A DNA stretch of 64,000 nucleotides from Deltaproteobacteria bacterium (GCA_022843175.1 JALHOE010000017.1:3091-67090); one strand, 5' to 3'. Shown: positions 15,288 to 28,632, counted from the stretch's first letter. Numbers and translations: made by a program. The notes: generated from the letters alone by a model not told the origin.

Positions 15288-16226
15288 ATGTCGTCGCGTC
15301 GCCTTCTTTGGCTTGCTCCGCTCTTCGTGGCCGCGTGCAGCTCTGCGGATCCGCCCGCCTCGTCCGCAACCGACACCGGCACCGCCGCCTCGGACACCGG
15401 TCCGGTCTCCGACACGGCGGCGGACACCCGGCCCACGAAGGTGCCCTGCAGCGAGCCGCCGGACGAGCGCCCCGCGGGCTCCGTCTGCGTGATGACGGTC
15501 ACCGGCAAGGTCGTCGACCCGGCCGGCGCGCCGGTCGCCGGCAAGCTCGTGTCGGTGTGCGGCTCGATCTGCTTCTTCGGCGAGACGAAGGCCGACGGCA
15601 CCTTCAGCGCCGACGTCGGCTCCTACATCAAGGTCGCGAACTTCGCGGCGTCGGTCCACGGCCGTCCCACGCACGCGAGCCTCTACGAGAAGCTCCCCGT
15701 CTCGGGCATGGGCGACATCGCGCTCCCGGCCACGATGATCCTCCCCACCGTCCCCGCGACCGGCACGCTCATCCCGAACGAGAAGCGCATCGTCACCGCG
15801 GCCGGGCCGATCACCCACGGCGATCTCACCCTCACGTTCCAGAGCGGCACCGAGATGGAGCTCGACCTCGAGGACGTCGAACTCACCATGGCCGGCAAGG
15901 GCGGCGATCACCTCCGCGCCGTGAAGGTCGAAGAGAAGGACTACCCGGCGTTCGTGAAGGGCGCGAACGTGAAGCTCCTCTACGCGGCCACGCCGTTCGA
16001 CGCGAAATTCAACAAGAAGGTCGCGGTGACGATCAACGCGACCGGTGGCCTCGCCGAGGGCACCGCCGTCGAGCTGATTGGCCTCGGCAACGAGTTCCTC
16101 AAGGAGCCGTTCACCGCGGGCGTCGTCGAGGTCGTCGCGACCGGCAAGGTCACCGGCGGCAAGATCGTCACCGACGCGGGCCAGGGCCTCAGCACGCTCA
16201 CCTGGGTTGGCGTGAGGGCAAAATGA
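15288..16226 (+). CDS. hypothetical lipoprotein (CarboxypepD_reg-like segment)
   Basis: Lipobox LFVAACSS and an acidic DTG linker. VTGKVVDPAGAPVAGKLVSVCG...TKADGTFS resembles a carboxypeptidase-regulatory-like beta-sandwich. The stop overlaps the next start (ATGA). Confidence 0.7.
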   Translation: MSSRRLLWLAPLFVAACSSADPPASSATDTGTAASDTGPVSDTAADTRPTKVPCSEPPDERPAGSVCVMTVTGKVVDPAGAPVAGKLVSVCGSICFFGETKADGTFSADVGSYIKVANFAASVHGRPTHASLYEKLPVSGMGDIALPATMILPTVPATGTLIPNEKRIVTAAGPITHGDLTLTFQSGTEMELDLEDVELTMAGKGGDHLRAVKVEEKDYPAFVKGANVKLLYAATPFDAKFNKKVAVTINATGGLAEGTAVELIGLGNEFLKEPFTAGVVEVVATGKVTGGKIVTDAGQGLSTLTWVGVRAK

Positions 16227-16975
16227 AGCGCTTTGCTCTCCTCCTCCTCATCGCGGGCTGCGGCGGCAGCTCCGACGCGCCCGCTTCTTCCTCGGAGGCG
16301 GACACCGGCGTCGCGAGCGACACCGCCACGGCCCCCGGCGACACGACCACCGAACCGACCGACTCCGCAGAGCCCCCGGCCGACAGCGTGGCGACCGAGG
16401 TCGCGACCGACACGCTCCCCGACGACACCGGCATCACCTTCGGCCCCTACCCGGCAGGCCCCTACGGCAACAAGGTGGGCGACGTCGTCGCGAACCTCAC
16501 GTGGGAGGGCTACGTCAACCCGCTGGCCGACAGCCTCGCGAACACCAAGCCGTACGTCACCACGGACATGGACAAGCTGCGGCGCGACGCGAAGAAGGGG
16601 TACGCGCTCGTCCATGTCTCGGAGTTCTTCTGACCCGGCTGTCGCAACGGGGCCCGTGATTTGGCCTCGCAGGGAAAGTCAGTGGTGGACGCGGGCGGTG
16701 CGATCGTCGAGGTGCTCGCGTCGAACGGAGGCGGCGCGCCGACGAAGGCGAACCTCAACGCGTGGGTCACGACCTACAACGTCCCGGTGACCTCGGTGAT
16801 CGACTCGCCGTCGAGCACCAAGACGCTCACGTTCTTCGGCATCCGCGAGACCTGCGTGGTCGTCGACGTCCGCACGATGAAGATCGTGAAGAAGGTCAAC
16901 GGCTCGGTCGCCGGCACCGGCGACTCCAGCGTCAAGCAGCTGATCCCCGAGATCCTCAAGCTGCTCGCCGGGTAA
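16223..16975 (+). CDS. TlpA-like thioredoxin-fold lipoprotein with in-frame TGA (probable selenocysteine, UPGC)
   Basis: The tail of ORF 15215..16633 and ORF 16661..16975 share a frame. Only TGA 16631-16633 separates them. Lipobox LLLIAGCGGS. Read-through gives YALVHVSEFF-U-PGCRNGARDL, matching WCxxCR of TlpA/ResA/CcmG-type redoxins, and the rest of the fold lies downstream. Confidence 0.7.
16648..16669 (+). promoter_or_regulatory. candidate bacterial SECIS hairpin
   Basis: cggggcc (16648-16654) pairs with ggcctcg (16663-16669): 7 bp including one G-U. The 8-nt loop cgugauuu contains GU. The stem starts 14 nt after the TGA. Folded by eye only. Confidence 0.4.
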
Positions 16976-17021: not shown

Positions 17022-17119
17022 TTCCGATCTACTCGCTATACGCGTTAGTTCGGCAAGTGGGGCGCGGTTGCGCTGTGTCCGAACTCGCCGAACTAACGCG
17101 TATAGCGAGTAGATCGGAA
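17022..17119. repeat. perfect 33-bp inverted repeat (long hairpin / MITE-like), lower GC than surroundings
   Basis: ttccgatctactcgctatacgcgttagttcggc (17022-17054) is the exact reverse complement of 17087-17119, with a 32-nt loop. It is intergenic, between the stop at 16975 and the start at 17261. Confidence 0.9.
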
Positions 17120-19879: not shown

Positions 19880-20842
19880 GTGCGCGCGCTGGTCGAAGCC
19901 CTCTGCTCGGATGCCTGCGCCGGGCGCGCGCCCGGCACCCCCGGGGGCGACACCGCGCGCGCGTTGGTCGTCGACGCCCTGCGCGAAGCGGGGCTCGATC
20001 CGCACGAGCAGCGCATCCCCCGCGGCGCCAATGTGCTCGCGACGATCCCCGGCGAGCGCTACGTCCTCGTTGCGGCGCACTTCGATCACCTCGGCAAGAG
20101 CGGCGACCAGATCTTTCGCGGCGCCGACGACAACGCTGCGGCGGTGGCCATCCTCGTCGAGGTCGCGCGCGGGCTCGCGAACAAGCGCCCGGACTGCGGC
20201 GTCATCCTCGCCGCGTTCGACGCCGAGGAGCCGCCGCACTTCCTCTCCGAGTCGATGGGCTCGGAGTACTTCGCGCGAAACCCGACGGTGCCGCTCGATC
20301 GCATCGACATGATGGTGTGCATGGATCTGGTCGGCCACGCGCTCGGCGACACCGGCGTCCCCGCGGTCTCGCAGACGCTGTTCGCGCTCGGCGCCGAGCG
20401 CAGCGTCGGGACGGCGGCGCGGGTCGACGCGATCGAGGAGCCGGGCGTCATCGTGCGCCGCGCCGACGCCGAGATCATCCCGCCGCTCTCCGACTACGCC
20501 GCGTTCTGGGACCGCTCGCGGCCGTTTCTCTTCCTCACCGGCGGACGCTCGCGCCGCTACCACACGCCCGACGACACGCCCGAGCACCTCGATTGGGCGA
20601 AGATGGCCGCCACCGCGCGCTGGCTCGAGCGGTTCGTCCGCGACGCGTGCGCTCGACCGAGCGTCGAGTTCCGCGCGCAGCGAGACGACGTCTCCACGCT
20701 CGACTCGGTGATCGCGATGCTCACCCCGTTGGCCGATCCGCGCGCGCAGGCGGCGCTCGCCATGGCCAAGCGGCTGCGCAATCACCCCGACCCGGCCAGC
20801 GTGGCCACGCTGATCGGCGCGATCGAGGGCGCGCTCGCATGA
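19880..20842 (+). CDS. M28 family metallopeptidase
   Basis: AAHFDHLG...GADDNAAAVAILVEVAR...AAFDAEE are the M28 metal-ligand motifs. Start set to GTG 19880, downstream of the divergent gene's start. Confidence 0.75.
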   Translation: MRALVEALCSDACAGRAPGTPGGDTARALVVDALREAGLDPHEQRIPRGANVLATIPGERYVLVAAHFDHLGKSGDQIFRGADDNAAAVAILVEVARGLANKRPDCGVILAAFDAEEPPHFLSESMGSEYFARNPTVPLDRIDMMVCMDLVGHALGDTGVPAVSQTLFALGAERSVGTAARVDAIEEPGVIVRRADAEIIPPLSDYAAFWDRSRPFLFLTGGRSRRYHTPDDTPEHLDWAKMAATARWLERFVRDACARPSVEFRAQRDDVSTLDSVIAMLTPLADPRAQAALAMAKRLRNHPDPASVATLIGAIEGALA

Positions 20843-21621
20843 GGTACCTCGCGGCGCTCCTCCTCGTCGCGTGCAGCGAGGCTTCGACCCCCGCGGCCGA
20901 GCCCGACACCGCGGTCGAGCCCGCAGCCGACGCCGACACCGCAGCCGACGCAGTTGCCGACGCCGCTGCCGATGCCGCTGCCGACGCCGACGCCGACGCC
21001 GATGCCGCGGCCGATGCCGATGCCGATGCCGATGCCGATGCCGCTGCGTCGCCGTGTCCCGCGGACATGGTCGGCGTCGACACGTTCTGCATCGATCGCT
21101 ACGAGGCGCCGAACGTGGCCGGTGCCAAGCCGCTCGCCTTCCAGATCGCGCCCGAGGGCGAGGCGTGGTGCAAGGCGCGCGGCAAGAGGCTGTGCAGCGA
21201 GGCCGAGTGGGTTCGCGCGTGTCAGGGCGCGGCCAAGCTCGCGTACCCCTACGGCGCGACCTACAAGCGCTCCACCTGCAACGACGACAAGGTCTGGAAG
21301 TCGCCGAGCTGGTCGACGCTCGGCACCTACCCGAGCGACGCGGCAAAGGCCGAGGCGGCGCGGCTCTATCAGGCCGATCCGAGCGGCGCGCGCACCGGCT
21401 GTGCCTCGGAGGACGGCGTCATGGACCTCACCGGCAACGTGGCCGAGTGGGTGACGCGCTCGTTCCCCAACGCGAACAACTACGACCACGTCATGAAGGG
21501 CTGCTACTGGTCGGGATGTTATGGCGGCGCGCCGCCGAGCTGCGGGTTCGTCAACCCTGCCCACCCCGGGGGCTTCCGCACCTACGAAGCGGGGTTTCGC
21601 TGCTGCTCCAAGAAATCGTGA
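20839..21621 (+). CDS. formylglycine-generating enzyme (SUMF1/EgtB/PvdO) family lipoprotein
   Basis: The ATG overlaps the upstream stop (ATGA). Lipobox LLLVACSE and an (Ala-Asp)n linker. FGE-sulfatase-type motifs: FCIDRYEAPN, RLCSEAEW, DLTGNVAEWV, GFRCC. Confidence 0.8.
   Translation: MRYLAALLLVACSEASTPAAEPDTAVEPAADADTAADAVADAAADAAADADADADAAADADADADADAAASPCPADMVGVDTFCIDRYEAPNVAGAKPLAFQIAPEGEAWCKARGKRLCSEAEWVRACQGAAKLAYPYGATYKRSTCNDDKVWKSPSWSTLGTYPSDAAKAEAARLYQADPSGARTGCASEDGVMDLTGNVAEWVTRSFPNANNYDHVMKGCYWSGCYGGAPPSCGFVNPAHPGGFRTYEAGFRCCSKKS
20923..21048 (+). repeat. GCNGAY hexanucleotide microsatellite encoding (Ala-Asp)n
   Basis: Near-perfect gccgac/gccgat run with its core at 20980-21042. 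It encodes ADAADAAADADADADAAADADADADADAA inside the FGE-like lipoprotein linker. Confidence 0.85.
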
Positions 21622-21653
21622 AACCAACCGCGCTGGGTGACGTACCTCGCTCG

Positions 21654-22343
21654 ATGCGCCTCCTTCTCGCCCTCCTTCTCGTCGGCTGCGGCTCTGCCGA
21701 GACCGCGGCGCCCTCGTCGGCCGACACCGGCGCTTCTTCGACCGATACCGACGTCGTCGCCGACACCGAGACCCCGACCGATACCGACGTCGTCGCCGAC
21801 ACCCGGGACACCGGCACGGCGCCGACCCATCCGGCCGGTCCCTACGGCACCGCGGTCGGCGAGGTGGTCGCGAACCTCGAGCTCGAGGGCTACGTCCGCT
21901 ATGCGCCCACGACCGGCCTCGCGACGACCGCGACCTACGGGCCCACGTCGTTCGCCGCCATCCGCGCCGCGTCGCCGAAGAAGTACGCGATCGTCCACGT
22001 CTCGGGCTTCACCTGAGGCGGTTGCCGGGGCGCGGTCCGCGACCTCCTCGTTCCGAAGTACCCCGAAGTGGCCGACAAGGCGATCGTGGTGGAGCTCCTC
22101 GCCGAGGGCAGCCCCTCGCACACGTCGCCGACCACGACCGACAACCTCAATAACTGGATCACCACCTTCTCGGTCCCGTTCACCACGCTCCGCGATCCCG
22201 ACGGCGTCGGCCTGCGGATCGTGAAGGACTTCGCGCCGCGCGAGAACACGTTCGTGATCGAGCTCGCCACGATGAAGGTGCTCTACCGCGGCTACGGCTA
22301 CACGAAGGTGCAGGGCGCCGTCGATCTCGTGAAGACTTTGTGA
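21654..22343 (+). CDS. TlpA-like thioredoxin-fold lipoprotein with in-frame TGA (probable selenocysteine, UGGC)
   Basis: The tail of ORF 20871..22016 and ORF 22068..22343 share a frame. Only TGA 22014-22016 separates them. Lipobox LLLVGCGS. Read-through gives YAIVHVSGFT-U-GGCRGAVRDLLVPKYPEV..AIVVELL, with the thioredoxin-fold remainder downstream. Paralogue of 16223..16975. Confidence 0.7.
22027..22046 (+). promoter_or_regulatory. candidate bacterial SECIS hairpin
   Basis: ggggcgcg (22027-22034) pairs with cgcg-a-ccuc (22038-22046), leaving an apical g-g-u-c region. It starts 10 nt after the TGA. gagg (22015-22018) can additionally pair with ccuc (22046-22049). Folded by eye only. Confidence 0.4.
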
Positions 22344-22372: not shown

Positions 22373-22834
22373 ATGTTGAAGGTTGGCGACCGCGCCCCCG
22401 CCATCGATCTGCCGTCGTCCGCCGGCTCGGTGTTCCACCTCTCGGAGCGCACCGCCGCGGGCCGCTGGGTCGTGCTCTACTTCTTCCCGGCAGCGTTCAC
22501 CCCCGGCTGCACGGCGGAGTCCAAGCGCTTCCGCGACAACACGCCCGAGCTGAGCGTGCTCGGCGCAGACGTGATCGGCATCTCCACCGACGACGCCAAG
22601 ACGCAGTGCCGCTTCGCCGAGTCGTTGCAGGTCTCCTTCCCGCTCCTGGCCGACGAGGGCGGCAAGCTCTCGCGCGCCTACGGCGTGCTCTGGCCGCTCC
22701 TCGCGAAGCCGCGTCGAGCCACCTTTGTCATCAGCCCGCGCGGCGTGATCGAGGCGGTGTTCTGGCACGAGATCCAGGTGAACAAACACCTCGACGACGT
22801 GTTCGCGTTCCTCCGCAAGCGCATCGCGGCGTAG
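22373..22834 (+). CDS. bcp: thioredoxin-dependent peroxiredoxin Bcp
   Basis: LKVGDRAPAIDLPS...VVLYFFPAAFTPGCTAES...GISTDD is a typical Bcp/PrxQ sequence. Start set to ATG 22373. Confidence 0.85.
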   Translation: MLKVGDRAPAIDLPSSAGSVFHLSERTAAGRWVVLYFFPAAFTPGCTAESKRFRDNTPELSVLGADVIGISTDDAKTQCRFAESLQVSFPLLADEGGKLSRAYGVLWPLLAKPRRATFVISPRGVIEAVFWHEIQVNKHLDDVFAFLRKRIAA

Positions 22835-25845: not shown

Positions 25846-28632
25846 TCAGCCGATCAGGATGAGCGGACCAGAGATGGTGACCCCCTCGGCCGTCGCGTAC
25901 AACGACGCCCCGCCGGATGCGAGGTTGGCCCCGGTGGTCGTGAGCGTGAGACCCGTCTCCTCTGCCATCAGGAACACAGTGGCTGGGGCGTCCACGGTGA
26001 AGTCGCCGACGATGGTGACCTCGGCCGAGGTGATCGTCGTCTCGGCCTCGGCGGTGATTTCGAGCGTCGGCGACTCGATCTCCATCGATGCCGCGGCGTT
26101 GATCTCCACCGAGGGTGACTCGATCGACACGGTGGCCTCGGCGGTCAGCTCGATGCCTGCCTCGGCCTCGATCAAGACGTCGGCGGTCTCGATCGACGCC
26201 TTGACCTCGGAGCTGATGTTGAGCGCTCCCTGGGGCGTGAATTGGATCACGTTCCCCGGCGAGGGCTGGATCGTGATGCCGCTCGCCGGCATGAGCTGAA
26301 TGCTCGCGGGCGTGGTGTGCAGCCGGATCTTCTCCTTCGAGCTGACCTCGACTTCCTTGATGCCGGCGACCGCGGCGTGCTCCGAGGTCACCGTGGCGCG
26401 CTCGGCGCCGAACATGGTGGCGACCTCGCCGTACACGAACGCTCGCTTCTCACCGGAGAGCACCGCCGATCCATCGGAGCCGATGAGGTTGAACGGGGAC
26501 TCGAGCTCGTCATCGAGGCTGGCCTTGGCCCCGGCGACGATCGTGTTGCAGTTGGACGACATGAACAGCCCGACGTTCGCGGCGATGGCCTTCTTCTTGT
26601 AGTACTCGACGATCACGTCGCACACGAAGCTCACCAGTCTGGTGCCGGCGCCCACCGCTCCGCCGAGCGCGCCGAGCGTGTTCTCGACCACCTGCGAGGC
26701 CTGCTCGAGCCGCTCCTCGGCTTCCTCGAGGTGCTCGAGGCGCTCCTTCTTGTCGTCGAGGTCCTTCTGCTTCTTCTCGACATCCTCGGCGTCGGGCGGC
26801 TGCACAGCGCGGGCCTGCTCGAGCGCCGACGCGGCGTCGTCGCGGTCCTTGGTCGCCTTCTCGACCTCGGCCGAGAGCACCGCCTTGGTCGGCTGCTCCA
26901 CGGTGGCGAGACCCGCCTCGGCCAGGCTCTCGATGAGCTCGGTGACGGCCTCGCCCATCTCCATGATCGCCTTGATGCGCTCGGGAACGGTCTTGCCCGC
27001 GAGCGAGACGAGGTTGCCGCTGATCAGCGCCTGCCGCGCCGACAACAGCGAGTTCCCGGTGGACACCGCGGCGCTCGCCGACTTGGTGATCGCGGTGAAG
27101 TTCGCCTCGGTCGCGAGGTGGATGCCCTCCTCCGGCGCGTTGGGCGCTCCGAGCTGCAGCACCGTGGAGTGCCGCGGCGTGGAGAGCTTGATCCGCTCGG
27201 CGCCCTTCTGATCGTCGAGGTGGATCTCGTTGTTGCTCCCGGTGCGGATGACGTTCTTGGTCGCGTTGGTCTGGGTGACCGGGCTCGGCGTGAGGGGGTT
27301 GGGCACGCAGGCCGCGATCACGGGGCGGTCGGGATCGCCGTCGACGAACGCGATCAGGACCTCGACGCCGGGGCGGAGGGGAAAGTGCATGCCGTAGCCG
27401 GGACCGGCGTGCGACTGCGCCATGCGGATCGGCAGCGAGGCGTGGCCGTCGTTGAGCCCGCTCTGATCGAACAGCAGCTTCACACGGTAGCGGCCGTGCT
27501 CGTCGAGCTCGGCGTACTCGCCCTTCTGCGCGGCATCGATCGTGCCGGTCAACAGGCCGCGCACGTGCGGTCGGGGCGTACGGCGTGCCGGTCGGAACGG
27601 CACGCTCGCGGGGATCGCGTGGAACCGACCGTCGTAGACGCGCCCGCCCACCTCGCCACCGTCGTGGGCGACGAAGCGACCCTCGAGCTCGGTGATGAGC
27701 AAGCCGAGCGTTCCGCGCCCGGCGCTCTCGACGTCCACGCGCGCTCCTGCGAACAGGATCGGCAACGAGCAGACGCCCTGGTAGACGTCACGGCCCGCCG
27801 CGATCTCCTCGGCGCGTACGCGCGCGAGGTGCCGCCCGACTTCGGGCGACAAGTAGTTGGGCCCGTACTCGTAGACCTCGTCCCCGAGGCCGCCCTGGAC
27901 CTTCGCGTCGGCGACGAGCGCGAGCATCGGACGGCTGTAGTCGTAGTCGTCGAGGCGCACCGCGGACGGCAGGGCCGAGACGCGCCGGCGCAGCTCGTGA
28001 ACCCCGTGGCCCGAGCGCCGCGGGTCGTGCACGATCGATCTCTGCACGTCGACACCCACCGACGAGTCGACGAAGCGCACGACGTCGCGCGAGTCCTCGG
28101 TGACGAAGTAGAAGGTGATGCCGGACTGCTCGGTGAGCCGCGCGAGGAACGCGAGATCGCTCTCCTCGTACTGGACGACGAACTCGCGCGAGGGATAGTG
28201 CGCGTCGAGGTCGATCGAGAAGTCCTGACCCTCGACCAGCTCCGCGTGGCCGAGGATCTCCCGCAGCAGCTGGGGCACGTTCTTGTCGCGGAACACACGC
28301 AGCCGGCGGTTGAGCGATAGCAGATGCAGCCGGGGGACCACCCGGAGCGCGAAGAACGAGAACTGACCGGTGGGGTCGCCGGTCAGGAGGTCGTCGACCG
28401 ACGCCACCACACCGGCGATGGATCGCAGCACCTCATTGTCCTCGACGAGGTCGATCCGGACCGCCGTGCCCACCCACCCGTCGACCTCCGGCGCGGCGCC
28501 GCCGACCTCGAGCGTGAGCTCGGCGTCGAAGGGGCGCGACAGCCCTTCGCGGAGGACCATCTCGCGCACGAGAAGGGGTCGCCCCTCGAGCGCAGGGCCG
28601 GAGATCTTCACGTCGAGCACGGAGTGGTCCAT
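25846..28632 (-). CDS. vgrG: VgrG (TssI)-like spike protein with coiled-coil insertion
   Basis: gp27-like N-terminus (REGLSRPFDAELTL, EFVVQYEESDLAFLARLTEQSGITFYF). gp5 OB-fold (PGVEVLIAFVDGDPDRPVI). C-terminal beta-helix-type repeats (IETADVLIEAEAGIELTAEATVSIESPSVEI). Lys/Glu-rich helical insert (DVEKKQKDLDDKKERLEHLEEAEERLEQ). Confidence 0.85.
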   Translation of the reverse strand: MDHSVLDVKISGPALEGRPLLVREMVLREGLSRPFDAELTLEVGGAAPEVDGWVGTAVRIDLVEDNEVLRSIAGVVASVDDLLTGDPTGQFSFFALRVVPRLHLLSLNRRLRVFRDKNVPQLLREILGHAELVEGQDFSIDLDAHYPSREFVVQYEESDLAFLARLTEQSGITFYFVTEDSRDVVRFVDSSVGVDVQRSIVHDPRRSGHGVHELRRRVSALPSAVRLDDYDYSRPMLALVADAKVQGGLGDEVYEYGPNYLSPEVGRHLARVRAEEIAAGRDVYQGVCSLPILFAGARVDVESAGRGTLGLLITELEGRFVAHDGGEVGGRVYDGRFHAIPASVPFRPARRTPRPHVRGLLTGTIDAAQKGEYAELDEHGRYRVKLLFDQSGLNDGHASLPIRMAQSHAGPGYGMHFPLRPGVEVLIAFVDGDPDRPVIAACVPNPLTPSPVTQTNATKNVIRTGSNNEIHLDDQKGAERIKLSTPRHSTVLQLGAPNAPEEGIHLATEANFTAITKSASAAVSTGNSLLSARQALISGNLVSLAGKTVPERIKAIMEMGEAVTELIESLAEAGLATVEQPTKAVLSAEVEKATKDRDDAASALEQARAVQPPDAEDVEKKQKDLDDKKERLEHLEEAEERLEQASQVVENTLGALGGAVGAGTRLVSFVCDVIVEYYKKKAIAANVGLFMSSNCNTIVAGAKASLDDELESPFNLIGSDGSAVLSGEKRAFVYGEVATMFGAERATVTSEHAAVAGIKEVEVSSKEKIRLHTTPASIQLMPASGITIQPSPGNVIQFTPQGALNISSEVKASIETADVLIEAEAGIELTAEATVSIESPSVEINAAASMEIESPTLEITAEAETTITSAEVTIVGDFTVDAPATVFLMAEETGLTLTTTGANLASGGASLYATAEGVTISGPLILIG

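Follow-up and report, generated by a model that had tools for sequence, protein, structure and literature searches.

A probable selenocysteine-containing lipoprotein related to TlpA, annotated as two hypothetical proteins, in a myxobacterial chromosome

In a stretch of 64,000 nucleotides from a deltaproteobacterium (Deltaproteobacteria bacterium, GCA_022843175.1, JALHOE010000017.1:3091-67090), hereafter called the window, two paralogous genes, locus A and locus B, are each interrupted by an in-frame TGA codon at the first position of a thioredoxin-like redox motif. We focused on locus B, for which a sequence-only reading had proposed that the TGA is decoded as selenocysteine (Sec, U) in an exported TlpA-like lipoprotein. 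Two open reading frames, 20871-22016 and 22068-22343, lie there in the same frame, and translation of positions 21654-22343 yields MRLLLALLLVGC...KKYAIVHVSGFT*GGCRGAVRDLLVPKYPEVADKAIVVELL...DLVKTL, with the TGA at 22014-22016 as the sole interruption before the stop codon at 22341-22343. The coordinates and the shared frame given in the sequence-only reading were exact on translation. In the public NCBI record, locus B is split into two hypothetical proteins, P0086 (120 amino acids) and P0081 (91 amino acids, starting at GTG 22068). The interruption stands in the context ...HVSGFT-U-GGC-R..., and its counterpart in locus A, whose lipobox is LLIAGC, reads ...HVSEFF*PGCRNGARD....

Both paralogues open with a lipobox matching [LVI][ASTVI][GAS]C (MRLLLALLLVGC in locus B, MKRFALLLLIAGC in locus A), in agreement with the proposal that both are lipoproteins, and the lipobox Cys is invariant in 19 family members. 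It is followed in locus B by a low-complexity tether, whose length and sequence vary among relatives and whose equivalent in the structural model of an orthologue, described below, is of low confidence. The folded domain then begins with the family signature [YH]P-x-GPYG, which is invariant or nearly so in the family alignments and was also the search pattern by which family loci were recovered. The features of both loci are collected in Table 1.

A protein search with the read-through sequence, in which U was written as C, returned 17 relatives. Fifteen of these first-pass homologues stop exactly at ...HVSGFT, and the two full-length ones continue as ...SAYW-C-G[IL]-C-K. Scans of genome and metagenome collections and exact look-ups provided the DNA of 54 loci, nearly all from metagenome-assembled genomes (MAGs) of Myxococcales/Polyangia, and relatives of locus B detected by tblastn align across the internal stop with 66% identity. 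The internal codon is TGA in all 24 distinct Sec-type loci (A and B of the window, L001-L005, L014, L018, L021, L022-L029, L031, L048, L049 and L051-L053), and TAA or TAG in none, whereas the real terminators of the same genes comprise 16 TGA, 3 TAG and 4 TAA (p ~0.004, hypergeometric, computed by hand and ignoring kinship among the loci). In about 25 further loci and about 55 database proteins, the TGA column is occupied by the first Cys of W-C-x-x-C. This is also the case in P0001 and P0002 (WCG[IL]C), and the closest Cys orthologue, P0001, uses the codon TGC. The mature domains of loci A and B are 41% identical, and alignment of the two placed their TGA codons in one column, as expected if the positions are homologous. 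The locus A orthologue (L005/L030) also carries TGA at the equivalent site.

Past the TGA, the frame contains no stop, and its conservation extends from the first codon (U-x-x-C-[KRQ]-x-A-x-R-D...) as far as a shared C-terminus. In close pairs, the ratio of nonsynonymous to synonymous substitution rates (dN/dS, Nei-Gojobori) ranges from 0.08 to 0.30 upstream and from 0.11 to 0.27 downstream of the TGA. Since the two ranges are alike, the downstream half is constrained as strongly as the upstream half, and purifying selection downstream, which the sequence-only reading had named as an argument for translation, is thus present. Such constraint bears directly on the idea of a pseudogene, created by a TGC-to-TGA nonsense mutation, or of a TGA that is a sequencing error. 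A single C-to-A change would suffice to turn TGC into TGA, and the window proteins do score poorly on curated family models. Yet 24 loci, drawn from independent assemblies and at least 4 subfamilies, share this TGA, both paralogues of one genome carry it, no additional stops or frameshifts are found, and the downstream dN/dS is that of a protein under selection. The pseudogene reading is effectively refuted.

Selection on both halves does not by itself separate one protein from two, and gene callers predict exactly P0086 and P0081, that is, a 120-residue lipoprotein ending in HVSGFT and a 91-residue protein initiated at GTG 22068. Conservation, however, starts right after the TGA, 17 codons ahead of this GTG, and takes in the motif's second Cys. 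We found no conserved restart codon: the first in-frame ATG, GTG or TTG after the TGA lies at +7, +11, +18, +28 or +37 depending on the relative (+18 in the window), L049 and L053 lack one in the first 45 codons, and gene callers place the start of the downstream fragment differently in different relatives. Each half by itself is an incomplete thioredoxin fold, the Cys relatives are uninterrupted, and the intervening stop is always TGA. Two separate proteins are accordingly very improbable. The in-frame conservation, the downstream constraint and the lack of a conserved restart together rule out a pseudogene and make a strong case against two products.

Two Sec-type paralogues occur together not only in the window but also in the syntenic P0004 contig (A and B), in MAG-85 (L001 and L021) and in SRP077602_co5_47 (L014 and L018), a pattern consistent with Sec decoding as a trait of the organism. 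A crude scan of the window for in-frame TGA codons in a redox-motif context recovered loci A and B only. A sister subfamily, represented by L021 (8284-9114) and P0095-P0120, reads YPAGPYGKTVG...YYDPDG...AALW-U-GSC-K. Some 25 distinct protein clusters belong to it, and in all of them the gene call ends at ...AALW, ahead of W-U-x-x-C; they add many Sec forms that have gone unrecognised. A third Sec subfamily (…TTGW-U-GSC…) occurs twice in one MAG, SRP077602_co5_47 (L014 10226 and L018 10226); the stem-loops downstream of the codon are unusually stable in L014 and L018 (z -2.9 and -3.3). Thioredoxin-fold proteins with a UxxC motif are the commonest class of bacterial Cys-to-Sec conversion, and the myxobacterium Anaeromyxobacter has 11 selenoproteins (PMC1794560). 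Our literature search on myxobacterial selenoproteins returned a 2006 survey as the sole pertinent publication.

Several results weigh against Sec decoding in a protein of this type. First, selA, selB, selD and tRNA-Sec were not found in the 64-kb window or in the 54 related loci (~0.6 Mb), by tRNA scans, by tblastn with approximate E. coli SelA, SelB and SelD queries, and by Pfam annotation of about 37 genes across the window. Because these stretches represent a small part of genomes of ~10 Mb, this negative result says little either way. Second, curated models hardly recognise the proteins: locus B has no Pfam match at E<=1, locus A matches AhpC-TSA with 19.8 bits, below the cutoff of 26, and neither has an NCBIfam match above cutoff. 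Third, tests of RNA structure and of synonymous variation gave little that is specific to the Sec forms. The minimum free energy (MFE) of the 48 nt after the codon is no different between 21 Sec and 25 Cys homologues (p 0.69 for the energy, 0.86 for the z-score), a hairpin with the shape of a selenocysteine insertion sequence (SECIS) is no commoner in Sec forms (3/21) than in Cys forms (8/26), and the drop in synonymous variation around the TGA is shallow and similar to dips elsewhere in the gene. The hairpin at 22027-22046, discussed below, is no more stable than its shuffles (z +0.59 and +0.73 in context, -0.5 to -0.7 alone). The thermodynamic tests fail to discriminate because GC-rich coding sequence folds anyway.

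The failure to find Sec machinery in the DNA searched, namely the window and the 54 loci, and to show a SECIS on thermodynamic grounds would also suit a UGA that is recoded without selenium, by a near-cognate Trp or Cys tRNA or a suppressor tRNA, to give a CxxC or WxxC protein. A general reassignment of TGA is excluded, since TGA is also a real terminator of the same genes, as it is of neighbouring ones. Moreover, the site is that of the nucleophilic Cys of CxxC, the classic position of Cys/Sec exchange (PMC1794560), and although TGC and TGT are one base away and are used by relatives, TGA has been kept in 24/24 loci across synonymous divergences (dS) of ~0.4-1. We consider recoding without selenium improbable.

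For Sec insertion, the sequence-only reading had pointed to a GC-rich hairpin starting 10 nt after the TGA, with a GGUC apex reminiscent of the E. coli fdhF SECIS loop. The hairpin exists (GGGGCGCG-GUC-CGCGACCUC, 22027-22046) and its first base is 10 nt past the TGA; in fdhF, the required spacing is close to 10 nt. Its presence and spacing thus hold, but its stability does not exceed chance in the shuffle z-scores given above. Nor is the apex evidence, since GGUC corresponds to a Val codon plus its neighbours in a hairpin of chance-level stability. The MFE fold of this region of locus B is another, longer stem-loop, a 14-bp hairpin beginning at the UGA itself.

Bacterial SECIS elements of the bSECISearch-type consensus are stem-loops that directly follow the UGA and whose apical loop lies ~16-37 nt downstream. 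RNAalifold on eight close relatives of locus B proposed a candidate stem-loop, which includes the 22027-22046 hairpin as its upper helix. In these sequences, 90% of the cells are paired, compared with 29-67% when partners are slid, four pairs show compensatory changes, and 0/500 shuffles attain the score, with the caveat that the eight sequences are related and that the structure was derived from those same sequences, which also tells against a firm reading. For L052, the candidate is the MFE structure (z -2.3); the window sequence favours the alternative hairpin, which is more stable. When all B-type sequences were pooled, RNAalifold gave only a weak 4-bp consensus. Hairpins differ between subclades, and outside the clade of these relatives they lie at +20 to +24. 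In other clades, including locus A, the hairpin is GGCC[CGNGANNU]GGCC, 20 nt past the UGA, and that of locus A, GGCC[CGUGAUUU]GGCC, shows one compensatory pair relative to the orthologue L005. A scan of the window against Rfam at gathering thresholds gave no match, and a permissive scan of 21950-22120 gave chance matches only (tRNA-Sec with 15.9 bits and E 0.82, and a snoRNA). A SECIS-like element downstream of the UGA is plausible, but only moderately backed by covariation among close relatives.

Relation to the TlpA family was apparent from profiles and from a structural model. A profile search returned about 55 full-length relatives carrying PF08534 (Redoxin) or PF00578 (AhpC-TSA), some of which are named 'TlpA family protein disulfide reductase' by NCBI. 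When a profile built from Sec forms only was compared with the TlpA-named group, hhalign gave a probability of 97.6% (E 2.6e-12) and placed U on the first Cys of WCVPC; against the PDB, the same profile gave weak matches to the thiol-disulfide isomerase 3lor and to ResA. An AlphaFold model was made of the Cys orthologue P0001 (42-48% identical), which stood in for the window protein. Its mean pLDDT, the per-residue confidence score, is 82, with a core above 90, and its top Foldseek matches are 4evm (a membrane-anchored thioredoxin-family protein), 3gl3 (DsbE), 4hqs (Etrx1) and ResA, with target-normalised TM scores of 0.69-0.82. In this model, C134, which corresponds to the Sec site, lies between a strand (124-131) and a helix (135-151), which is where thioredoxin-fold oxidoreductases have their nucleophile. 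The model thus confidently predicts a fold of the ResA/DsbE/Etrx1 type, with the Cys or Sec at the N-terminus of helix 1.

The sequence-only reading had gone further and matched the motif to the W-C-x-x-C of TlpA-like proteins. The fold is borne out by the profile comparison and the orthologue model, but two hallmarks, the Trp and the cis-Pro, are missing. The residue before U was mistaken for the Trp: it is Thr in locus B (F-T-U-G-G-C) and Phe in locus A (F-F-U-P-G-C), and Thr, Phe or Ile throughout the Sec clade to which loci A and B belong (the A/B clade). Every Cys relative keeps the Trp, as do the Sec types L021 and L014. At the alignment column of the canonical cis-Pro (in ResA, the second Pro of SPLPTTF), Glu is invariant in the A/B clade and the Cys-type relatives have Pro. 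Because these two hallmarks are lacking, we class the locus B protein as a TlpA-family relative of the same fold and not as a canonical member. The peroxiredoxin motif P-x-x-x-[TS]-x-x-C is also absent from HVSGFT-U-GGC.

Two further residues are invariant in the A/B clade, a His at U-6 and an Arg at U+8. In the Cys forms of this clade, P0001 and P0002, both Trp and His are retained and Arg and Glu are lacking, and the L021- and L014-type Sec subfamilies keep both W-U and the cis-Pro. From these alignments, acquisition of Sec in the A/B clade may have been accompanied by a rebuilding of the active site, with loss of the Trp and the cis-Pro and with an invariant His, Arg and Glu.

Table 1. Features of locus B and of its paralogue, locus A, in window coordinates
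Feature	Position	Strand	Basis or remark
Locus B, complete selenoprotein coding sequence (predicted)	21654..22343	+	229 residues counting Sec121; stop TGA 22341-22343; single internal TGA
Lipoprotein signal peptide, lipobox L-V-G-C, Cys12 = 21687-21689	21654..21689	+	Read from sequence
Asp/Thr-rich low-complexity tether, from lipid anchor to folded domain	21690..21827	+	Translation
HPAGPYG motif, opening of the folded domain	21828..21848	+	Family signature [YH]P-x-GPYG
His115 (mature-domain position 57), 6 residues ahead of Sec	21996..21998	+	Invariant in A/B clade
Probable Sec121, in-frame TGA, first position of the U-G-G-C redox motif (22014-22025)	22014..22016	+	24/24 Sec-type loci
C-terminal half of the thioredoxin fold	22017..22343	+	Translated only if the TGA is decoded; in-frame conservation in all relatives
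Arg129-Asp130 (mature positions 71-72), Arg = Sec+8	22038..22043	+	Invariant Arg, specific to A/B-clade Sec forms
Glu197 (mature position 139), canonical cis-Pro column	22242..22244	+	Alignment; invariant in A/B clade
Candidate SECIS stem-loop	22013..22058	+	RNAalifold consensus, 8 close relatives of locus B; spans UGA to +44
Candidate SECIS, lower helix	22013-15/22056-58 and 22017-20/22051-54	+	RNAalifold
Candidate SECIS, upper helix	22027-29/22043-45 and 22031-33/22039-41	+	Same as hairpin 22027-22046
Candidate SECIS, apical loop GGUCC	22034-22038	+	RNAalifold
Locus A lipoprotein, in-frame TGA 16631-16633 (…HVSEFF-U-PGC-R…), stem-loop 16631-16688	16223..16975	+	Translation, alignment

The window is an ordinary stretch of myxobacterial chromosome, with genes including an AI-2E transporter, a Metallophos protein, an M28 peptidase, VgrG, a Ser/Thr kinase and ClpB. 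Locus B is flanked by a gene for an FGE-sulfatase-domain lipoprotein (20839-21621) and by a BCP peroxiredoxin (22373-22834; FTPGC motif, 119 bits). A conserved operon was considered for locus B and rejected, these two neighbours being kept in the closest relative only. The FGE-sulfatase-domain gene, on the plus strand, ends 32 nt 5' of locus B and encodes a linker of Ala/Asp dipeptide-rich repeats (…ADADADADAAADADADADADAAA…); in the P0004 contig, it overlaps the locus B orthologue by 4 nt. A VgrG-like protein with Phage_GPD and Phage_base_V domains, a type VI secretion spike, is encoded 3 kb downstream on the minus strand (25846-28632) and has no evident link to locus B. The neighbourhood showed no link to cytochrome c maturation, Sco/Cox or Msr genes.

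Locus A is preceded by a gene for a 312-residue lipoprotein with several Cys and no Pfam family (15288-16226, plus strand), which overlaps the start of locus A (ATGA). This gene lies directly upstream of Sec-type and Cys-type family members in L005/L030, L013, L015 and L032, and in divergent orientation in L017. The 312-residue lipoprotein and the locus A-type gene form a conserved pair, the former being possibly a redox partner or a substrate of the latter. Just 3' of locus A, at 17022-17119, is a 37-nt inverted repeat (97% complementary, 24-nt spacer) in relatively AT-rich intergenic DNA; it is present as a single copy in the window and is absent from the related loci.

Taken together, the homology of the TGA codons, the Cys relatives, the selection on the downstream half and the lack of a conserved restart support the proposal of an exported U-x-x-C selenolipoprotein related to TlpA. 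We conclude that UGA 22014-22016 very probably encodes Sec, and that locus B is one gene for a lipid-anchored, extracytoplasmic oxidoreductase of thioredoxin fold. In the mechanism we propose, the ribosome would reach the UGA, a stem-loop in the next ~45 nt of the coding sequence would recruit SelB with Sec-tRNA(Sec), and Sec would be inserted. The pre-protein would then be exported and lipidated at Cys12, leaving the mature protein suspended in the periplasm by its Asp/Thr-rich tether. There, the selenolate of U-G-G-C would attack an oxidised substrate (a disulfide, a sulfenic or a peroxide species), and the resulting selenenylsulfide would be resolved by Cys124.

As in published UxxC thioredoxin-fold selenoproteins, the in-frame UGA occupies the position of the first Cys of CxxC and Cys homologues coexist with the Sec forms; those families also occur in (former) Deltaproteobacteria, including a myxobacterium (PMC1794560). 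The present family is set apart from their descriptions by its own signature [YH]PxGPYG, its lipoprotein tether and the pattern H...[FT]-U-x-x-C...R-D...R-E. With TlpA, ResA, CcmG (DsbE) and Etrx1, it would share the fold, the N-terminal beta-hairpin and the inserted helix, as judged from the model of P0001, as well as a redox motif at the N-terminus of helix 1 and a membrane or lipid anchor outside the cytoplasm; in S. pneumoniae, Etrx1 (4hqs) too is a thioredoxin exposed as a surface lipoprotein. It differs from these proteins in having Sec for the first Cys, Thr or Phe for the Trp and Glu for the cis-Pro, in addition to the invariant His and Arg. NF041057, the Rcas_1661 thioredoxin-like (seleno)lipoprotein, is similarly a thioredoxin-like lipoprotein with Sec and Cys forms. 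However, the match of loci A and B to it is limited to the signal and linker region (residues 3-80; 13.0 and 15.4 bits against a cutoff of 190). The locus A/B family differs from NF041057, since the catalytic domains do not match.

We conclude that loci A and B define a new family within a known kind, the UxxC thioredoxin-fold selenoproteins, with an unusually remodelled active site. This remodelling raises the possibility, which we regard as tentative and on balance unlikely, that the A/B clade is a distinct extracytoplasmic selenoenzyme, for instance a selenol-based peroxidase or a sulfenate reductase, rather than a TlpA disulfide reductase in which selenium replaces sulfur, and that the locus A type is a dedicated partner of the 312-residue lipoprotein.

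Dozens of genes of this family in Polyangia/Myxococcales are deposited as pairs of short hypothetical proteins, and these split annotations would be mended by a family model in which U is accepted at the active site. With Sec and Cys forms in one clade and clear changes at the Trp, cis-Pro, His, Arg and Glu positions, the family offers a natural experiment on the use of selenium. For the Polyangia/Myxococcales lineages in which it is found, it would add an exported, lipid-anchored selenoprotein family, with two paralogues per genome, and would imply selenium-dependent redox chemistry in the cell envelope.

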